Assembly (NCBI GenBank): GCA_963845755.1
Contig: CAWJTV010000011.1
Location: 928,001 to 992,000, forward strand
DNA: 64,000 nucleotides
From: an uncultured Planctomycetota bacterium
GTDB taxonomy: Bacteria > Planctomycetota > Planctomycetia > Isosphaerales > Isosphaeraceae
Direction of reading: 5' to 3'
Under the pieces are notes generated by a model, which was not told the origin of the DNA, did no database searches, and was given only the letters and a program-made list of their open reading frames with translations. Below are positions 52,212 through 59,375 of this stretch, piece by piece (the first letter of the stretch is position 1; every line of letters starts with the position of its first letter). The translations under genes and the position numbers were made by a program.

Positions 52212-53033
52212 CTAGACCAGCGTGATGAGCACGACCTCGGGGCGGCAGAGGAAGCGGATGGGCGGTGTCACGGTGCCGACGCCCCGAGTGATGAAGACCT
52301 GGGCACACGGGCCTTGAACGAGTCCGTGGAGGTATTTCTGCCCGTACCGCGAGGGGACGACCGGGGCACCGAAGCCGGGCACGATCACCTGGCCACCGTG
52401 GGTATGGCCACTCAGGACCAGCCCAACACGAGGGTCTCGGAGGGTCTCGACAAAGTCCGGGTTGTGCGACAGGAGGAGGACGGCGTCGTCCAGGGTCGCG
52501 TCGCCCATCGCGGCGGGGAGGTCTTGCGAATCCGTCCAGAGATCGCCGACGCCGCAGACCCGCAGCCGGGTCCCGCGGCGCTCGAGCCAGACGCCCCGGT
52601 TATTCAGGTCGGGCAGGTTCGCCTCAGCCAGCGCGGACCGGCTGATGGACGTGAATTCCCGGTTGTCGTGGTTGCCCCGCACTGCGAACCGTCCCAGGGG
52701 AGCTGTCAGCTTGCCCAGCTCGGCAATTCCCGGCTCGATGAAGTCGGCGGAACGGTGCATATAGTCCCCGGCCAGCAGGACCATGTCGGGCCGCAGCGAA
52801 TTGGTCAGCGCGACGACATGCCGGACGTATTCCAGCGGGACGAACGGCCCGTGGTGCACGTCGGCCAGCAGAGCGACGGTCGTCCCCCGGAAGGGTCCAG
52901 GGAGGTTCGGCAGCGCGATCGTTTGCCGCACCACCCCGCACCACCTGGCCTCCAGGAAGGGATAGATCCCGCCAGCCACCGCGCCGCCCGCCGCCACCAG
53001 GCCCACCCGCTTCAGGAACTTGCGTCGATCCAT
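52212..53033 (-). CDS. Metallophosphoesterase (YkuE-like) with a Tat-like leader
   Basis: MDRRKFLK, DVHHG, AGDY, GNHD, SHNPD and SGHTHGGQ motifs. Confidence 0.9.
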   Translation of the reverse strand: MDRRKFLKRVGLVAAGGAVAGGIYPFLEARWCGVVRQTIALPNLPGPFRGTTVALLADVHHGPFVPLEYVRHVVALTNSLRPDMVLLAGDYMHRSADFIEPGIAELGKLTAPLGRFAVRGNHDNREFTSISRSALAEANLPDLNNRGVWLERRGTRLRVCGVGDLWTDSQDLPAAMGDATLDDAVLLLSHNPDFVETLRDPRVGLVLSGHTHGGQVIVPGFGAPVVPSRYGQKYLHGLVQGPCAQVFITRGVGTVTPPIRFLCRPEVVLITLV

Positions 53034-53385
53034 CGATTCCTCCCCGATTCCGGTCGCCCGAAAACACCACGCGCATCGTGTTGGCGTTAGCATGCTGGAA
53101 TTCCATCGAAAAGGCCACCGCAAACGCGACAGGTTCGTGACGCTTCGCGGATCCTCGGGACGATGCATCGCTCTGGAGATGATTGACGCCCCGATGATCT
53201 TACTCTACGATACGCGCTTCCACGATCGAGGTGAAGTAAGTTCGCTTCGGGAAACAGGGTTACGCTCGGTGGTCTGGCGAATCAACCCAGGCGGGTGGCA
53301 CGCATCGTGGTGGTTCGATCATCTCTCTTGCAGCGATTGAAGGGGTAGCTCCCCGAGTCGGACGACCGCACCTGGAGCACTCACG

Positions 53386-54810
53386 ATGGCCGACCGTCCG
53401 TACATCTTCTTCGAACTGACTAATAGCTTGTGCTCGACCTGCCTGCGCAAGGTCGAGGCGAAGGTGATCTTCCAGGAGGGGCGCGTCTACCTGGTCAAGC
53501 ACTGCCCCGAGCACAAGCAGGAAAAAGTCCTGATCTCGACGGACGTCGATTACTACCAGTTCTCGCGGCGTGCGCTCAAGCCGGGCACGATGCCGCGGAA
53601 GTTCAACACGGCGATCGAGCGCGGTTGTCCCTACGACTGTGGGCTCTGTCCCGACCACGAGCAGCACAGTTGCCTGGCGCTGGTCGAGATCACCGACCAC
53701 TGCAACCTGACCTGCCCGATCTGCTACGCCGAGAGTTCGCCGCGTCGCCCGTTGCATCGGTCGCTGGAGCAGATCGCGTTCATGCTCGACTGCGTCGTGC
53801 GGAACGAGGGTCGGCCGGACATCGTGCAGATCTCTGGCGGCGAGCCGACGATCCATCCCGAGTTCTTCGAGGTGCTCGACCTCGCCCGGCAGCGGCCGAT
53901 CAAGCACCTGATGGTCAACACCAACGGCGTGCGCATCGCCCAGGACGCCGAGTTCGTCCGGCGTCTCGGAGCGTACAAGCCGGGCTTCGAGGTGTACCTC
54001 CAGTTCGACTCGCTCGACGCGGTGCCCCAGCAGGCGTTGCGCGGCGCGGACCTGGTCGAGGTCCGCACCCGGGCGCTCGAGCACCTCAACAAGCACGGGA
54101 TCTCGACCACGCTGGTCGTCACGCTCAAGAAAGGGCTCAACGACGACCAGGTCGGCGCGATCATCGATTTCGCGCTGGAGCAGCCGTGCGTCCGCGGGGT
54201 GACGTTCCAGCCGGTGCAGGCCGCCGGACGGATCGAGGGGTTCGACCCGGCGCGCGACCGCTTGACGCTGGGCGAGGTCCGCGCGAGAATCCTCGAACAA
54301 TCGTCCCACTTCCAGCCCAGCGACATCGTGCCGGTCCCTTGCCATCCCGACTGCCTGGCCATGGCCTATGCACTGAAGCTCGGCGGCAAGGTTGTCCCCC
54401 TGACCCAGCTCCTGGACCCCACGACGCTCCTGGAGATGCAGGGCAACACGATCCTCAACGAGCAGGATCCCGAGATGCGCCGGCTCGTCCTCGAATTGTT
54501 CTCGACGTCACACTCGCCCGACTCGTCGGCCTGGACGCTGCGCCAGCTCCTCTGCTGCCTGCCGGAGCTGTCCGTGCCGCAGCAGCTCACCTATGACAAG
54601 ATCTTTCGCGTGTTGATCGTGCAGTTCCTCGACCCGTATAACTTCGACGTCCGCTCGGTGAAGAAGTCGTGCATCCACATCGTCCACCCGGACGGCCGGA
54701 TCATCCCATTTGACACGTATAATTTATTCTATCGCGACACGGTCGCCGCGCGGATGCCCGCGATGCCCTGGAATCAGAGTCTGCCGATCCTGGTCGGAGG
54801 GGTGTCATGA
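53386..54810 (+). CDS. Radical SAM enzyme of the Tes/GDGT-MAS (MJ0619-like) family
   Basis: N-terminal CSTC...CPEH, GCPYDCGLCPDH, CNLTCPIC SAM motif, SGGEPT, YLQFD and C-terminal SCIHIVHPDGRIIPF. Confidence 0.85.
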   Translation: MADRPYIFFELTNSLCSTCLRKVEAKVIFQEGRVYLVKHCPEHKQEKVLISTDVDYYQFSRRALKPGTMPRKFNTAIERGCPYDCGLCPDHEQHSCLALVEITDHCNLTCPICYAESSPRRPLHRSLEQIAFMLDCVVRNEGRPDIVQISGGEPTIHPEFFEVLDLARQRPIKHLMVNTNGVRIAQDAEFVRRLGAYKPGFEVYLQFDSLDAVPQQALRGADLVEVRTRALEHLNKHGISTTLVVTLKKGLNDDQVGAIIDFALEQPCVRGVTFQPVQAAGRIEGFDPARDRLTLGEVRARILEQSSHFQPSDIVPVPCHPDCLAMAYALKLGGKVVPLTQLLDPTTLLEMQGNTILNEQDPEMRRLVLELFSTSHSPDSSAWTLRQLLCCLPELSVPQQLTYDKIFRVLIVQFLDPYNFDVRSVKKSCIHIVHPDGRIIPFDTYNLFYRDTVAARMPAMPWNQSLPILVGGVS

Positions 54811-55124
54811 GCGATGCCCCCCTTGCGCCGGATTGCCGACACTGTGGCGCGGTGAACGACTCCGGTGCCTCGGAATGCTGGCAGTGCCACCGACGGGACT
54901 GGCGGGGCTCCCAAGGCCCCGTCGAGGAATCCCCGGTCTTGGCCTCCGTTCGAGGCGCAGGGGTCGTTGACGGGCGGCCTGGTCCTGATCATCACGATCC
55001 TCTGCGCGGTCGTCGGCCTGGCCTTCCGGGCCAGCCCGTACCTCGGCGCGTGGTCCTGCTCCCGACTCTTGTGATCCTTGCCCTGGCGGTCGCCCTGTTC
55101 ACGATCTGCATGGCATTCGGCTGA
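54807..55124 (+). CDS. Zn-ribbon membrane protein, paralog 1 (compensating frameshifts)
   Basis: CRHCGAVN...CWQCHRRDW, TM segment in the alternative frame, ends LALAVALFTICMAFG. Start overlaps the rSAM stop. Confidence 0.75.
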   Translation: MSDAPLAPDCRHCGAVNDSGASECWQCHRRDWRGSQGPVEESPVLASVRGAGVVDGRPGPDHHDPLRGRRPGLPGQPVPRRVVLLPTLVILALAVALFTICMAFG

Positions 55125-55134
55125 GGCCACCCCG

Positions 55135-55845
55135 ATGAGCACCATTCCCGCATCGCTCCCATCCGACGCATCGCCACTTCCCGGAAGCGAAGACCGCCCG
55201 TGGTACATCGTCGGCCGCTGGCAGGAATACCAGGGCGAGGCGCGGGCGAACCTGCTGCGGCTGGTGGCCGTCGCCGCGTTCTACGTCATCGAGCTGATCA
55301 ATTATTACGGCGTCGATCTGGGCTTCATCCAGCTCCCGAAAGTCAGCGACCTGGCGTTTCACAAGACCGTCACGGCGATCGCCGCGGCCTGGGTCTTGCT
55401 CGGCGTGGGAGTCCACTTCTGGCTGCGACTTCACCTCATGCCCGAGGCGCTGAAGTACGTCTCCACGAGTCTGGACGTCGTGCTCTTGACCCTCCTCCTG
55501 ATGGTCTCCGATGGGCCAAGGAGCCCGATCATCGCTGCCTATTTCCTGATCCCTGCCCTGGCCTGCCTGCGGTTCCAGCTCCGCTTGGTCTGGTTCGCGA
55601 CGATCGCCGCGATGCTCGGCTACGTCTGGCTGCTGGGTTGGGCGGTCTGGATCGAGAGCGTTCGGAACGTCCGCGTGCCGCGATACCACGAGCTGATCTT
55701 CCTGACGGCGCTGGCGATGAGCGGGATCATCCAGGGCCAGGTGATCCGCCGGGTGAAAGCGCTGGCCGCCGAGTATGCGCGCCGCCTGGCCTCCACCGGG
55801 GAGCCAGCTCGACCTGAGTCGAGCCCGGTTGGAGGAACCTCATGA
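55135..55845 (+). CDS. Polytopic membrane protein (about six TM helices)
   Basis: Repeated hydrophobic segments and EARANLLRL. Stop overlaps the next start. Confidence 0.75.
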   Translation: MSTIPASLPSDASPLPGSEDRPWYIVGRWQEYQGEARANLLRLVAVAAFYVIELINYYGVDLGFIQLPKVSDLAFHKTVTAIAAAWVLLGVGVHFWLRLHLMPEALKYVSTSLDVVLLTLLLMVSDGPRSPIIAAYFLIPALACLRFQLRLVWFATIAAMLGYVWLLGWAVWIESVRNVRVPRYHELIFLTALAMSGIIQGQVIRRVKALAAEYARRLASTGEPARPESSPVGGTS

Positions 55846-56201
55846 GCCGGATCGAACCCCGACCGAAACCGGAACCAAAGGGGAGTTGCTGGGACTGCGG
55901 CGCGACCAATTGGGCCGATGCCCGGGGTTGCTGGCTCTGCCACCGCCGCGATTGGAAGTCGGGCGCGATCGCGGCCTCCGTAGGACGCACGGCGGCTGAC
56001 GACGAGCCGACCCCAAAATCGAGAGATCGGGCCGATAAGGCCGCCAGGGTGAGCTCGATCGCATCCACGGTGCTCATCTCTCTAGCCGCGTTTGTCTTTG
56101 TGACGGTCGTCCTACCACTCATGGTCATCGGTTTTGTGACCGTCGCCCTGGTCATCGCCCTGAATCAGTTCTGCTCGGCCCTCACGGCTCACCCGCCTTG
56201 A
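55842..56201 (+). CDS. Zn-ribbon membrane protein, paralog 2
   Basis: CWDCGATN...CWLCHRRDW, ends VALVIALNQFCSALTAHPP. Confidence 0.8.
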   Translation: MSRIEPRPKPEPKGSCWDCGATNWADARGCWLCHRRDWKSGAIAASVGRTAADDEPTPKSRDRADKAARVSSIASTVLISLAAFVFVTVVLPLMVIGFVTVALVIALNQFCSALTAHPP

Positions 56202-56287
56202 TGGCCGGGCTGGGGAGGGCCCGCTTGGCTTCATCCGGAGACCACGAAGACAGCCCGGATCCCTGGTTTGCAGCAACTGAGGTTCCC

Positions 56288-56740
56288 ATGAGTTCCGAGA
56301 AACCGCCGGCTTCCCTGAGATGCTTCGACTGCGGCGCGGAGAACGACCCCGGCGCCTCGGAATGCTGGCTCTGCCATCGGCGGGACTGGCGAGAGGGCTC
56401 CGCGGGCGCCGAGCCGAAGTCCCTCGACTACGCGCCAGATCATCGAACAGCTCCATCGCGAGCGACTCGTGTCGATGACCGGCCGGATTGGTGTGGTCGC
56501 GCTCGGACTAGTGCTGCTCGCAACTCTCGCGGTTGCGCCGGACTGGCCATCGGGCTGGGGATCTTGGCGGTGCTGATCGCCCTCCCGGTCTGGGGTGCCG
56601 GGACGATTACCAAAGGGATGTCGCCGCTGGCCCGATTCTTCGTGACCTTGGTGCTAAGCCTCGTATTCTTAATCCTGCTGGTCGTGGCGCTCTACATCGC
56701 CCTTTATCTCATCTGCATCGCGATGGGCCTGATCGATTAG
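56288..56740 (+). CDS. Zn-ribbon membrane protein, paralog 3 (probable compensating frameshifts near 56460-56540)
   Basis: CFDCGAEN...CWLCHRRDW, ends VALYIALYLICIAMGLID. Confidence 0.78.
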   Translation: MSSEKPPASLRCFDCGAENDPGASECWLCHRRDWREGSAGAEPKSLDYAPDHRTAPSRATRVDDRPDWCGRARTSAARNSRGCAGLAIGLGILAVLIALPVWGAGTITKGMSPLARFFVTLVLSLVFLILLVVALYIALYLICIAMGLID

Positions 56741-56835
56741 AATGGAGCTCGAGAGGCCCCGGGATCACGGGACGAGTTTGACCCTGAGGGATGCCGGCGT
56801 CGGGAAGCGATCCGAAGCGAGAAAGAGTTTCCGCC

Positions 56836-57273
56836 ATGAGCGCCGGGATACCCCAACCGGAACTCCCCTGCTGGCACTGCGGTGCGTGGAACCACCGCGG
56901 CTCGTCGGAGTGCTGGCTGTGCCAGCGCCGGGATTGGAACAAGTCGCCCTTGCTCCCACCGAGGACGGCCGCCCGGTCGCCGCGCGGGCCGCTCTCGACC
57001 ATCGCGGGCCACATGATCTTGATCGCGCTGATCGCCGTGTTCCTGGTCATCTTCATCGCGGCGCCGCCCCTGGCTATCGCCTTGCTGGTTTGTGCCCTGC
57101 CGGCCTGGGCGATCGTCGAGATGAAAGCACGCCGCCGCCGTCGCCGAGGTGACTCGATGTCCGGCATCGAGAGAGCCCTGTGGATCGTCGGTCTGACGAT
57201 CGGGATCCCTATCGTGTTGGCAGTAGCTCTGGCCATCGCCTTGTTCACGTTCTGCGCCTTCATGCAGCGGTAG
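56836..57273 (+). CDS. Zn-ribbon membrane protein, paralog 4
   Basis: CWHCGAWN...CWLCQRRDW, ends VALAIALFTFCAFMQR. Confidence 0.8.
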   Translation: MSAGIPQPELPCWHCGAWNHRGSSECWLCQRRDWNKSPLLPPRTAARSPRGPLSTIAGHMILIALIAVFLVIFIAAPPLAIALLVCALPAWAIVEMKARRRRRRGDSMSGIERALWIVGLTIGIPIVLAVALAIALFTFCAFMQR

Positions 57274-57290
57274 ACGGAGATGAGACACCG

Positions 57291-58508
57291 ATGATCAACC
57301 CGCCGCCTACCCCTGGCCTGGCCTACACCGGGATCATGATCCTGTCGATCGCGACGGCAGTGATCTTGAAGCGCCGGGGCGACCGATCGTTGCCACTGTC
57401 GGCCGCGCAACGGTGGGGGATCGCGCTGGGGGCTTTCTGCGGCGCGATGATCGGCTCGAAGATTCCGTTCGTGCTGGCCGACTGGGAGGGCCTCATCAGC
57501 GGCCGGGCCTGGTTCGACAACGGCAAGACGATCCTGTTCGGCCTGGTCGGGGGTTATTTTGGCGTCGAGCTGGCCAAGGCAATTCTGGGCGTGACGGTCA
57601 AGACGGGGGACAGCTTCGCGGTGCCGGTAGCGGCGGCGGTGGCCGTGGGCCGGCTGGCCTGCTTCGTCGGAGGCTGCTGCTTCGGCAAGCCGACGAGTCT
57701 CCCCTGGGGCGTCGTGTTCCACGATGGCATCCCTCGCCACCCGACGCAGCTCTACGAAGCGGCGTTCCACGCCTCGGCCGCAGTGTTCCTGGCCTGGACC
57801 GAACGCCGGGGACTGTTCCGACTCCAGCGGATCAAGCTCTATTTGATCGCCTACTTGATCTATCGCTTCTTCACCGAGTTCATCCGCCCTGAGCCGGTCA
57901 TCGCCCTGAGCCTGACAGCCTATCAGTGGGGGGCACTGGCCTTGCTCCCGGTTTTCGCCTGGCTCTGGCGGCGCGACGCGGCGCCGCGCTCACTAGAGTT
58001 CGAGGATTTGCTCGCCGCCGTGCGCGGGATTGCCGGCCAGCGAGTGAGATTCCCAGTCCACGACGAGGTCGAGTCGCAGAAGTGGCAGCCGACCGATGAG
58101 GACCGGTGTGCCATCGGGGACTTCCACAACGTCCATCGTGCAGTCTCGCCCCTGGATGGTGAGCCGCACGGGGTCGTACATGGCGGCTTTCTGGTTCTGC
58201 GCCTCCAGTCCGAGCCGATGAATGACACAGGACGGAAGCGCGATCAGCTTCGTACTGGAATCCACCAGCGCGTTGGGAACCCTCACGCGCCGGACATGGT
58301 CGGCGGAGATCAATCCGCGCTCGGCGTCCCAGAGGTCCTTCAAACTCTCGATCGTCGCTTCCGTGAAAACACGCCCCATCGTTTCGGCCTCCATGGACTT
58401 CGCCTCCTTCGATATCAGGCATTCGGACGATCTGGCCCTATGACCATCGTGCTCCAAATTTCACCGAAAGACCAGTCAAGTCCGCGAGATCGGCGAACTG
58501 CGACGTGA
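57291..58508 (+). CDS. Prolipoprotein diacylglyceryl transferase (Lgt)-like protein; domain ends near 57990 and the ORF runs on antisense to the next gene
   Basis: GRLACFVGGCCFGKPTSLPWGV, RHPTQLYE and YRFFTEFIRP motifs. Confidence 0.85.
   Translation: MINPPPTPGLAYTGIMILSIATAVILKRRGDRSLPLSAAQRWGIALGAFCGAMIGSKIPFVLADWEGLISGRAWFDNGKTILFGLVGGYFGVELAKAILGVTVKTGDSFAVPVAAAVAVGRLACFVGGCCFGKPTSLPWGVVFHDGIPRHPTQLYEAAFHASAAVFLAWTERRGLFRLQRIKLYLIAYLIYRFFTEFIRPEPVIALSLTAYQWGALALLPVFAWLWRRDAAPRSLEFEDLLAAVRGIAGQRVRFPVHDEVESQKWQPTDEDRCAIGDFHNVHRAVSPLDGEPHGVVHGGFLVLRLQSEPMNDTGRKRDQLRTGIHQRVGNPHAPDMVGGDQSALGVPEVLQTLDRRFRENTPHRFGLHGLRLLRYQAFGRSGPMTIVLQISPKDQSSPRDRRTAT
57993..58394 (-). CDS. Retropepsin-like aspartyl protease family protein
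   Basis: MGRVFTEATIE...ALVDSSTKLIALP...PVLIGRLPL...DLVVD. The catalytic motif deviates from DTG/DSG. Confidence 0.7.
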   Translation of the reverse strand: MEAETMGRVFTEATIESLKDLWDAERGLISADHVRRVRVPNALVDSSTKLIALPSCVIHRLGLEAQNQKAAMYDPVRLTIQGRDCTMDVVEVPDGTPVLIGRLPLLRLDLVVDWESHSLAGNPAHGGEQILEL

Positions 58509-58616
58509 GGTGCAATCCCGGCCCGCCGGTTGACTCGGATCGGTTCACCCCGTTACGATCGGCGGAGACAAACCGCGTAAAGATGAAGCCCGTAACCCGA
58601 GATGGTAAGTCGAGCG

Positions 58617-59375
58617 ATGCAGATCCTTTTGACAAACGATGATGGTGTTTTTGCCCCCGGCTTGCGTGCGTTGCGCAAGGAGCTGATGCGGCTGGGGGAA
58701 GTGACCGTAGTGGCCCCGGCGATGGAGCAGAGCGGCGTGGCGCACTCGATCACGCTGCTCGAGCCCTTGGTGGTCAAGAAGGTCGAGGATGTCAACGGCA
58801 CGACCCTGGGCTGGAAGGTCGAGGGGAGCCCGGCCGACAGCGTCAAACTGGGGATCTGCGAGTTGATGGCGCGCCCCCCGGACCTGATCGTCTCGGGGAT
58901 CAATTCGGGGTCCAACGCTGGGATCAACGTGCTGTACTCCGGCACGGTCGCCGCGGCGATCGAGGGGGCTTTTTTCAAGATCACGAGCATCGCGATCTCG
59001 CTGGAGCTCTCCGAGCACTTCGATTTCCCCCACGCGGCGCGGCACGCCGTGCGGGTGATCGAGAAGATCCTGGCCAATCGGCCGCCGAACGGCTCGCTGT
59101 TCAACGTCAATCTGCCGGCCCACTCGCGCGGCGAGCCCCGGGGCATCCGCGTCGTCCCCATGGGGCTGGGCCGCTACGGTGAAGGCTTCGAGCGCCGGCA
59201 GGACCCCCGCGGTCGCACTTACTACTGGATGACCTACAACCCGCCCTATCACCTCGAAGGACCCGAGACCGACGTCACCAGCCTCTGCGAAGGTTACATC
59301 ACCGTCACCCCACTCCATTTCGATCTGACCCTCCACGATCGGATCGACGAGATCGGTCGATGGAAGTGGGATTAG
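58617..59375 (+). CDS. surE: 5-prime/3-prime nucleotidase SurE
   Basis: ILLTNDDG, EQSG, GSPADSV and SGINSGSNAG..VLYSGTVAAAIEG. Confidence 0.95.
   Translation: MQILLTNDDGVFAPGLRALRKELMRLGEVTVVAPAMEQSGVAHSITLLEPLVVKKVEDVNGTTLGWKVEGSPADSVKLGICELMARPPDLIVSGINSGSNAGINVLYSGTVAAAIEGAFFKITSIAISLELSEHFDFPHAARHAVRVIEKILANRPPNGSLFNVNLPAHSRGEPRGIRVVPMGLGRYGEGFERRQDPRGRTYYWMTYNPPYHLEGPETDVTSLCEGYITVTPLHFDLTLHDRIDEIGRWKWD

Follow-up and report, generated by a model that had tools for sequence, protein, structure and literature searches.

In a 64,000-nt stretch of the genome of an uncultured planctomycete of the family Isosphaeraceae (contig CAWJTV010000011.1; the whole stretch is called the window below, and coordinates are positions in it), seven same-strand open reading frames (ORFs) span 53386-58508 on the plus strand. 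This cassette is a form, seen in Isosphaeraceae, of a membrane module of three parts that is widespread in bacteria. An Lgt-like gene, with Cys at the position of Asn146 (N146) of the Escherichia coli enzyme, lies beside the gene of a radical S-adenosylmethionine (rSAM) enzyme of the Tes family in one same-strand cluster, and with them are genes for four small transmembrane (TM) proteins that carry a conserved Cys, predicted to sit at the outer end of a helix, and then a short tail. Lgt transfers diacylglyceryl onto a Cys thiol, and Tes/GDGT-MAS enzymes join lipid tails by C-C bonds. The arrangement is far beyond chance: the same two genes are found together in one phylum after another, and also as fusions. 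What is local to this cassette is that its small proteins number four and bear zinc ribbons, that a 6-TM protein is present, and that the rSAM enzyme is swapped for one of another clade.

An earlier note on this DNA had described seven co-directional, closely spaced genes with ATGA overlaps at 54807 and 55842, which is what the ORF list contains: the first overlap joins the rSAM gene to zr1, the second the 6-TM gene to zr2. The end it gave, 57990, has no in-frame stop, and the last ORF stays open to 58508. Its gene list holds; it had not mentioned the N-terminal zinc ribbons of the small proteins, nor described the remaining gene as encoding a 6-TM protein. The genes are:

53386-54810, plus strand: Tes/GDGT-MAS-family rSAM enzyme, 474 aa (Pfam, NCBIfam, 7TOL profile match, tree)
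54807-55124, plus strand: zr1, 105 aa, zinc ribbon and one TM helix, ending ...ALFTIC-MAFG
55135-55845, plus strand: 6-TM membrane protein, 236 aa, no Pfam or NCBIfam family
55842-56201, plus strand: zr2, 119 aa, zinc ribbon and TM helix, ending ...ALNQFC-SALTAHPP
56288-56740, plus strand: zr3, 150 aa, zinc ribbon and TM helices, ending ...ALYLIC-IAMGLID
56836-57273, plus strand: zr4, 145 aa, zinc ribbon and three TM helices, ending ...ALFTFC-AFMQR
57291-58508, plus strand: Lgt-like 7-TM enzyme, homologous core ~57291-57985 (~232 aa) (Pfam LGT, AF2 model, Foldseek)

The G+C content around the cassette is ~0.65, with no compositional break. In the assembly (14.3 Mb, 49 contigs, completeness 87.9%) the rSAM enzyme is the sole member of the Tes-like family at E<=1e-20, and the Lgt-like gene is the third of the Lgt family, besides two canonical Lgt genes.

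Linkage and fusion of the two enzymes

The rSAM gene is present in 11 of 41 related genomes. In ten related loci the Lgt-like gene stands beside it nine times, zr-type proteins are encoded at seven loci and the 6-TM protein at four. For a survey of the phylum, 401 genomes were searched with each enzyme and the coordinates compared. Matches with at least 54% identity to the window rSAM make up clade A, those with 39-44% clade B. A same-strand Lgt-like gene lies within 700 bp of 35 of the 44 clade-A matches, mostly less than 120 bp away and usually upstream; several of the nine exceptions are at or near a contig end. All ten clade-B matches have a same-strand Lgt-like gene downstream (nine within 600 bp, that of genome G430 at ~4.1 kb), as do the three members of clade C, within 200 bp. 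More distant Tes-like genes, often tandem pairs, have no Lgt-like gene adjoining them in these genomes. Such genes, with 28-38% identity, stand in pairs or triples without an Lgt-like gene at L065, L066, G163, G228, G052, G058 and G229; they are probably part of another system, which may be that of the Tes/Gms-type clusters to which PMC11214058 refers.

The window rSAM falls inside clade A (support 100), and genomes G023 and G007 of the same family carry a clade-B enzyme. The window's Lgt-like protein, by contrast with its rSAM partner, belongs to the group that accompanies clade-B enzymes (support 97). The window, G001 and G009 thus have mixed cassettes, in which a clade-A rSAM gene stands, in a new order, with zr genes and an Lgt-like gene of the clade-B type. 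Such an exchange between clades argues that both rSAM clades serve the same partner.

Beyond the phylum, we scanned one genome per species by rSAM alignment and took the best 80 of 589 relatives, with 57-94% identity to the window rSAM. An Lgt-like gene is found at 70 of these 80 loci, almost always directly upstream of the rSAM gene and mostly overlapping or abutting it; of the ten other loci, three break off right upstream of the rSAM gene. The best 80 loci come from more than ten phyla, and those with an Lgt-like gene include Planctomycetota, Bacillota, Bacteroidota, Acidobacteriota, Pseudomonadota, Myxococcota, Cyanobacteria/Melainabacteria, Elusimicrobia and Gemmatimonadota. The sources range from Isosphaeraceae (the window's kin, 92-94% identity), Tepidisphaeraceae and Phycisphaerales through Myxococcota, Melainabacteria, Chamaesiphon, Acidobacteriota, Paenibacillus, Neobacillus, Brevibacillus, Cohnella and Niallia to Mucilaginibacter, Chitinophaga, Pedobacter, Hymenobacter, Saprospiraceae, Rhodanobacter, Dyella, Elusimicrobia, Longimicrobium and one Halobacteriales metagenome-assembled genome (MAG). 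Cultured carriers include Paenibacillus harenae, Mucilaginibacter pineti, Chitinophaga hostae and Aquisphaera giovannonii. Among 5.8 billion proteins there are at least 7995 homologs at E<=1e-80, all generically named. A search of sequencing runs listed no RNA dataset, and the DNA shares were at most 0.13, in soil metagenomes.

The two enzymes are also found in one polypeptide. Of 75 longer proteins homologous to the Lgt-like protein of the window, 73 are single chains with PF01790, PF23545 and PF04055, 444-753 aa long (mostly 620-750), whose Lgt part is mostly 52-62% identical to that of the window. In the three that were checked the order is LGT (5-216), zinc ribbon (~250-295) and rSAM core (~330-530). 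Since the C-terminus of Lgt is cytoplasmic by the charge rule and is followed by the rSAM part in the fusions, the rSAM enzyme, a cytoplasmic enzyme, is placed on the cytoplasmic face of its Lgt-like partner. The module or its fused form is also present in records labelled as an archaeon (L104, the Halobacteriales MAG) and a dinoflagellate (P0188, Symbiodinium), which suggests transfer or contamination.

All-versus-all BLAST of the loci revealed no conserved neighbour besides the enzyme pair and the small proteins (ABC ATPases and others were scattered), and in clade-A loci the enzyme pair is all that BLAST finds conserved. The co-occurrence of Tes homologs with Lgt-like genes and near-terminal-Cys TM proteins, which the earlier note had named as the thing to look for, therefore extends over many phyla, often with the enzymes fused. 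We found no published description of the system; the module is widespread, with a planctomycete variant here, and not special to this operon. Our literature search returned no paper tying an Lgt homolog to a Tes-like rSAM enzyme, although most subscription journals were outside its coverage and absence is not proven by it.

The enzymes and the small Cys-tailed proteins

The first gene matches Pfam Radical_SAM (80.8 bits) and Zn_ribbon_HMPTM (59.6 bits), the latter, a Tes-type zinc ribbon, being the sole Pfam domain beside the radical SAM core at E<=0.01; the last matches LGT, and both identities given in the earlier note are thereby borne out. The rSAM protein has an N-terminal zinc ribbon, a CPYDCGLC motif and the radical SAM motif CNLTCPIC, and its N-terminal cluster motifs are the same as those of the archaeal GDGT-MAS structure 7TOL. 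An alignment of its residues 11-462 with 24-511 of 7TOL (E 5.5e-70) shows homology along the full length. Likeness to Tes was thus correctly seen; orthology to Tes is not borne out, as the score lies under the family cut-off, and the pattern of cluster Cys appears to differ. The NCBIfam Tes model (NF045702) gives 293 bits, below its cut-off of 450, and matches residues 12-328 only; the TrsS model (NF045646) gives 329 bits, below 490. The same holds for all ten Lgt-linked rSAMs tested from clades A, B and C, which stay below both cut-offs and have TrsS as their top NCBIfam model (190-356 bits), and also for three other Tes-like rSAMs scored alongside them. Clade A reads 'SC...PFD' where 7TOL and clades B and C read 'CC...PFC'. 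Two extra Cys, C96 and C319, are invariant in all three clades and absent from 7TOL, and the CPYDCGLC motif is missing from clade C.

The window rSAM gene has no in-frame TGA. Two clade-B genes from two genomes of one genus (L048:6244-7650, plus strand; L050:7100-8510, minus strand) have one at residue 385, within a Cys-rich insert, 'ACCAPGES-TGA-GP', after which the frame runs on to a normal C-terminus; the codon may encode selenocysteine, as in the TrsS family. In G009, a genome of the window's family, the clade-A rSAM gene (L019:4016-5420) is spread over three frames, in pieces of 71%, 67% and 72% identity, next to intact zr and Lgt-like genes, and is either a pseudogene or an assembly error.

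The Lgt-like protein scores 93.7 bits against Pfam LGT (PF01790; gathering score 24.9) and 39.5 bits against NCBIfam TIGR00544, below the cut-off of 118.9; on Pfam the canonical copies of the same genome reach 206 and 204 bits versus 93 for the cassette copy. In a tree, the rSAM-linked Lgt-likes group apart from these two canonical Lgts with support 99. The AF2 model has a pLDDT of 91.8, and E. coli Lgt (5AZB) is its only Foldseek match at E<=0.001 (E 8.9e-6, TM-score 0.59). A phmmer search of the PDB sequences with the single protein found no match, whereas a profile of 27 Lgt-likes did match 5AZB (E 1.4e-15).

In this alignment R122, R193, Y189 and D108 are invariant in 27 of 27 Lgt-likes and correspond to E. 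coli R143, R239, Y235 and D129. Other active-site positions have changed. N146 of the signature motif GRLGNFINGELWG is replaced by Cys (C125) in all 27. H103 of the HGGL motif has become hydrophobic, with Val, Leu or a similar residue in its place. At the E151 position the window's type has Cys ('GC-CxG') and the other subtype Asp ('xEDxTxG'); Y26H is found in the subtype that accompanies most clade-A rSAMs. E94 and K97 are likewise invariant (27/27), where the aligned residues of E. coli Lgt are hydrophobic; by our reading of the helices, they and D108 would lie at the cytoplasmic ends of TM3 and TM4. In E. coli Lgt the residues Y26, H103, R143, N146, G154 and R239 are essential (2026, PMC13251419). 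The same source notes N146C in distant Lgts, namely M. smegmatis MSMEG_5408 (with Y26H) and the Lgt of Leptospira interrogans. The assignment as Lgt-like, then, is sound for the Pfam domain, the 7-TM fold and the equivalents of R143, R239 and Y235, and fails for N146, H103 and the equivalog cut-off.

The third part of the module is the small proteins. As the earlier note had claimed, the window encodes four Cys-tailed membrane paralogs: zr1-zr4 all have a zinc ribbon, CxxCGAxN...CWxCxRRDW, at the N-terminus and, at the other end, a TM helix that finishes in ALxIALxxxC, with 4-8 residues after it. They match no Pfam or NCBIfam family, and a search of the genome with their profile returns these four, at the cassette, and no others. 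In 13 of 13 planctomycete members the C-terminal Cys is the only invariant residue outside the zinc ribbon. Matches to the zr profile are confined to clade-B-type cassettes, and the ribbon is an addition made in planctomycetes, which, on the cytoplasmic side, is possibly a handle for the rSAM enzyme. At clade-A loci, small three-TM proteins of 85-130 aa, often in tandem, are encoded directly downstream of the rSAM gene, and their last TM helix likewise leads to a Cys and a short tail (...LLIGF[ASG][TS]C... in Bacteroidota, ...TFLLNA[AS]CFG... in Bacillota).

With a fixed detector, a Cys-tailed TM ORF is found within 1.3 kb downstream of the rSAM gene at 46 of 75 loci, versus 4 of 75 on the opposite strand (these are the loci with enough flank among the best 80 of 589 relatives). 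A stricter detector, applied to 129 loci, accepted 75 of 3044 nearby same-strand ORFs versus 50 of 10662 others; a relaxed one was uninformative (56/80 loci, with 27/80 in the opposite-strand control). The 75 sequences show a common context around the Cys, with L/I at -6 and -5, G/L at -4, F at -3, G/S/A at -2, T/A/L at -1, F/S/A/G at +2 and G/A at +3, and a tail of median 9 residues. With small residues at -2 and G or A at +3, this context is lipobox-like. A positively charged loop precedes the last helix in all the small proteins compared (in zr4 it is poly-Arg), so by the positive-inside rule the conserved Cys is predicted to be at the outer face. A further property of 17 of the 75 proteins (L067-L146) is a terminal His, often as ...FH, ...WH or ...NFH, which the window's four lack.

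The 6-TM protein, without a match in Pfam or NCBIfam, has homologs in seven other cassettes (L017, L022, L047, L025, L048, L050 and L026), and a language-model search gives a lead towards a membrane domain of a sensor, resembling that of PilS or MASE2. At L021:5143-5313 (G027), the ORF before the Lgt-like gene opens with five in-frame copies of 'EEWKSGRV', ahead of the likely true start.

At the 3' end of the window's Lgt-like ORF, homology to relatives ends at ~57980, the genes of relatives stop 5-15 codons past the WLWRRD motif, and the G+C content at third codon positions is 0.64 in the tail compared with 0.87 in the core, the codon-position G+C of the tail being non-coding-like. We therefore take the 7-TM core to be intact and the last ~170 codons to be probable read-through or an assembly flaw. 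DNA similarity to a same-genus genome is lost near 57980 and is back at 58478. Because the stop is missing, the ORF runs across the antisense of a convergent 154-aa ORF (57993-58457, minus strand), which the tail overlaps. This ORF has a faint match to a clan-AA aspartic protease (TIGR03698, E 0.0085) and no tblastn match in the 14-kb same-genus locus L017, nor in L019, L067, L068 or L069. Two genes flank the cassette:

52212-53168, minus strand: Tat-signal metallophosphoesterase near YaeI/LpxG (158 and 109 bits, both below cut-off)
58602-59375, plus strand: SurE

We rejected both as members, since their synteny extends to the same genus only and neither is among the neighbours conserved across loci.

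What the module may do

From the linkage, the fusions, family membership, the residue pattern and topology by the charge rule, we consider it plausible, short of probable, that the Lgt-like enzyme lipidates the Cys of the small proteins and the rSAM enzyme remodels the lipid tails by radical chemistry. On this proposal, an Lgt-derived 7-TM enzyme that has kept the phosphatidylglycerol (PG)-binding arginines, with its active site facing the outer leaflet, would carry the rSAM enzyme docked on, and often fused to, its cytoplasmic C-terminus. The Lgt-like enzyme would move a glycerolipid moiety onto the outer-end Cys of a small protein. From the cytoplasmic side the rSAM enzyme would activate C-H bonds and couple alkyl tails of the lipid by C-C bonds; its target could be the donor lipid, ahead of the transfer, or tails that meet at the bilayer mid-plane. 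The product would be a small membrane protein with an unusual, macrocyclic or membrane-spanning lipid. The positive-inside rule puts both the Cys and the Lgt active site on the outer side, which makes lipidation of the Cys topologically sensible, and the invariance of the phosphate-binding Arg pair in 27 of 27 sequences argues that lipid binding is retained. A more specific version, which we rate as rather unlikely, has the small protein thioether-linked through its C-terminal Cys to a glycerolipid whose tails are welded to each other or to an inner-leaflet lipid, so that the protein would be stitched across the bilayer. We know of no covalently bilayer-spanning lipid-protein conjugate of that kind in any organism.

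Several observations weigh against lipidation of the Cys followed, or preceded, by tail coupling. The essential Lgt residues N146 and H103 are replaced in the Lgt-like enzyme. The rSAM enzyme appears not to be a Tes orthologue (293 bits versus a cut-off of 450) and seems to have a different pattern of cluster Cys; because two Cys kept by 7TOL and by clades B and C are lost in clade A, the chemistry of clade A may differ from that of Tes. The membrane separates the rSAM enzyme from the Cys, so the enzyme would have to reach the bilayer mid-plane, hypothetically, to act directly on a lipid bound to the Cys. A strict lipobox fits only 3 of the 75 Cys contexts. About a third of the loci (29/75) have no adjacent Cys-tailed ORF, and several Acidobacteria loci were without such a gene on inspection too. 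Finally, the closest rSAM orthologue from outside the genus (G013, 74% identity; L018/L070) has no Lgt-like gene in 10 kb. That locus also lacks a zr gene in 10 kb and has an LmbE-like gene upstream of the rSAM gene. Complex prediction for the rSAM enzyme, the Lgt-like protein and zr4 scored 0.00 in both runs, which, with no controls run, is no evidence either way.

The strongest competitor, unlikely in our judgement yet deserving real weight, is a free-lipid pathway, in which the enzyme complex would produce a glycerolipid in bulk, either membrane-spanning or macrocyclic: the Lgt-like part would bind or transfer PG-type lipids, the rSAM part would couple tails as Tes does, and the small Cys proteins would be accessory subunits, chaperones or regulators and not substrates. 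In its favour are the invariant core of the module, which is the enzyme pair with its fusions, the 29 of 75 loci, several of them acidobacterial, that have no adjacent Cys-tailed ORF, and the full-length resemblance of the rSAM enzyme to GDGT-MAS. Bacterial Tes homologs have been tied by hypothesis to the synthesis of branched glycerol dialkyl glycerol tetraethers (brGDGTs) (PMC8941075, PMC11214058, PMC13459092), as proposed by Zeng et al. in the first of these. Acidobacteria make iso-diabolic-acid lipids, and in the excerpts of PMC13159169 an mss homolog is reported as not found in them; the same source, however, gives Tes homologs for only 3 of 14 iso-diabolic-acid-producing acidobacteria. 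Bulk lipid synthesis also leaves aside that a Cys at a fixed position is the only conserved feature of fast-diverging small proteins, often in tandem like precursor genes, and that carriers of the module include Paenibacillus, Mucilaginibacter and Chitinophaga. To our knowledge, with no search made, membrane-spanning lipids are not known in these three genera.

The tandem small paralogs beside an rSAM gene also recall the precursor and maturase sets of ribosomally synthesized and post-translationally modified peptides. Here the rSAM enzyme would modify the small protein itself, for example by a thioether or C-C crosslink, with an inactive Lgt-like protein as scaffold for the substrate helix. 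The absence of Lgt's essential N146 and H103 would suit this, and the cytoplasmic zinc ribbons of the planctomycete small proteins could be recognition handles. We nevertheless find it improbable: the conserved Cys faces outward by the charge rule, while in the fusions the rSAM part adjoins the end of the Lgt-like part that lies in the cytoplasm; the rSAM enzyme can be aligned from end to end with a lipid enzyme and has a Tes-type zinc ribbon as its only other Pfam domain at E<=0.01; and the phosphate-binding Arg pair of Lgt is invariant (27/27).

The Cys that replaces N146 might instead be a catalytic nucleophile. In that case an acyl chain, not diacylglyceryl, would be moved to the small protein, and the rSAM enzyme would tailor the chain. 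Lnt works through an acyl-enzyme, C125, within the active-site signature motif, is invariant, and E94, K97 and D108 are invariant too (27/27 each). However, the N146C-bearing Lgt of Leptospira partly complements E. coli, so the Cys need not change the chemistry, and it may only form a stabilising disulfide (PMC13251419). Acyl transfer by this Cys is in our view improbable. That a spare housekeeping Lgt and unrelated genes lie together by accident, as a large genome (14.3 Mb) with three Lgt-family genes might allow, is ruled out by linkage at 70 of the best 80 loci across phyla, the 73 fused proteins and the separate grouping of the rSAM-linked Lgt-likes in the Lgt tree (support 99).

If lipidation of the Cys with radical remodelling of the lipid is true, bacteria of more than ten phyla have a dedicated lipidation route, acting at a C-terminal-proximal Cys of tiny polytopic proteins, in which a remodelled Lgt active site and a radical enzyme from the family of the tetraether synthase are physically joined; this would be a new class of lipid-protein chemistry. 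The module would also touch on an old question of geochemistry. The presence of Tes homologs in bacteria fits lipid phenotypes poorly (the 3 of 14 producers in PMC13159169), and many of these homologs may do something other than the synthesis of brGDGTs or membrane-spanning lipids. Should expression of single genes have failed, the Lgt-like partner and the Cys-tailed proteins could explain it. Were the protein indeed anchored through both leaflets in this way, many of the 'bacterial Tes homologs' that serve as genomic markers of brGDGT producers would belong to a protein-directed system. The natural single-chain fusions and the cultured carriers make the system directly testable.

Comparison with known systems

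Tes/GDGT-MAS (M. jannaschii MJ0619, 7TOL/7TOM; NF045702) shares with the window rSAM the zinc ribbon, CPYDCGLC, CX3CX2C, a C-terminal CIH motif and homology over the full length. Window-type enzymes differ from it in forming bacterial clades of their own, at 293 bits against a cut-off of 450, and in being coupled to an Lgt-like membrane enzyme and Cys-tailed proteins. We know of no such partners for Tes, archaeal neighbourhoods not having been examined.

TrsS (NF045646), a radical SAM (seleno)protein of Haft & Tolstoy 2025, appears as a table entry in PMC13188914. It provides the best NCBIfam model for the ten Lgt-linked rSAMs tested, and two clade-B members have an in-frame TGA; none of the ten, however, reaches its cut-off of 490, and the window enzyme has no TGA. 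Mss, the membrane-spanning lipid synthase of Thermotoga (PMC13159169), is likewise a bacterial radical SAM enzyme, and coupling of lipid tails has been proposed or shown for it. That source sets it apart from Tes; the excerpts of it describe no Lgt-like partner or Cys-tailed proteins with Mss.

With E. coli Lgt (5AZB/5AZC; PF01790) the Lgt-like enzymes share the Pfam domain, the 7-TM fold and the same inferred topology, the equivalents of R143, R239, Y235, D129, E243, R246 and G154, and a candidate acceptor Cys on the outer side, where a hydrophobic N-in/C-out helix ends. They differ in the replacement of N146 by Cys, of H103 by a hydrophobic residue and of E151 by Cys or Asp, in E94 and K97, which have no counterpart in E. 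coli, and in a smaller periplasmic head domain. They are, moreover, always partnered with or fused to a radical SAM enzyme, and their candidate acceptors are tiny polytopic proteins with the Cys 3-25 residues from the C-terminus. The nearest precedent for the active site is that of the N146C Lgts, MSMEG_5408 and the Leptospira enzyme, which have the same substitutions: N146C as in all Lgt-likes, and Y26H as in one subtype. The Leptospira protein, unlike the cassette copy, is presented in PMC13251419 as the organism's Lgt and not as a spare.

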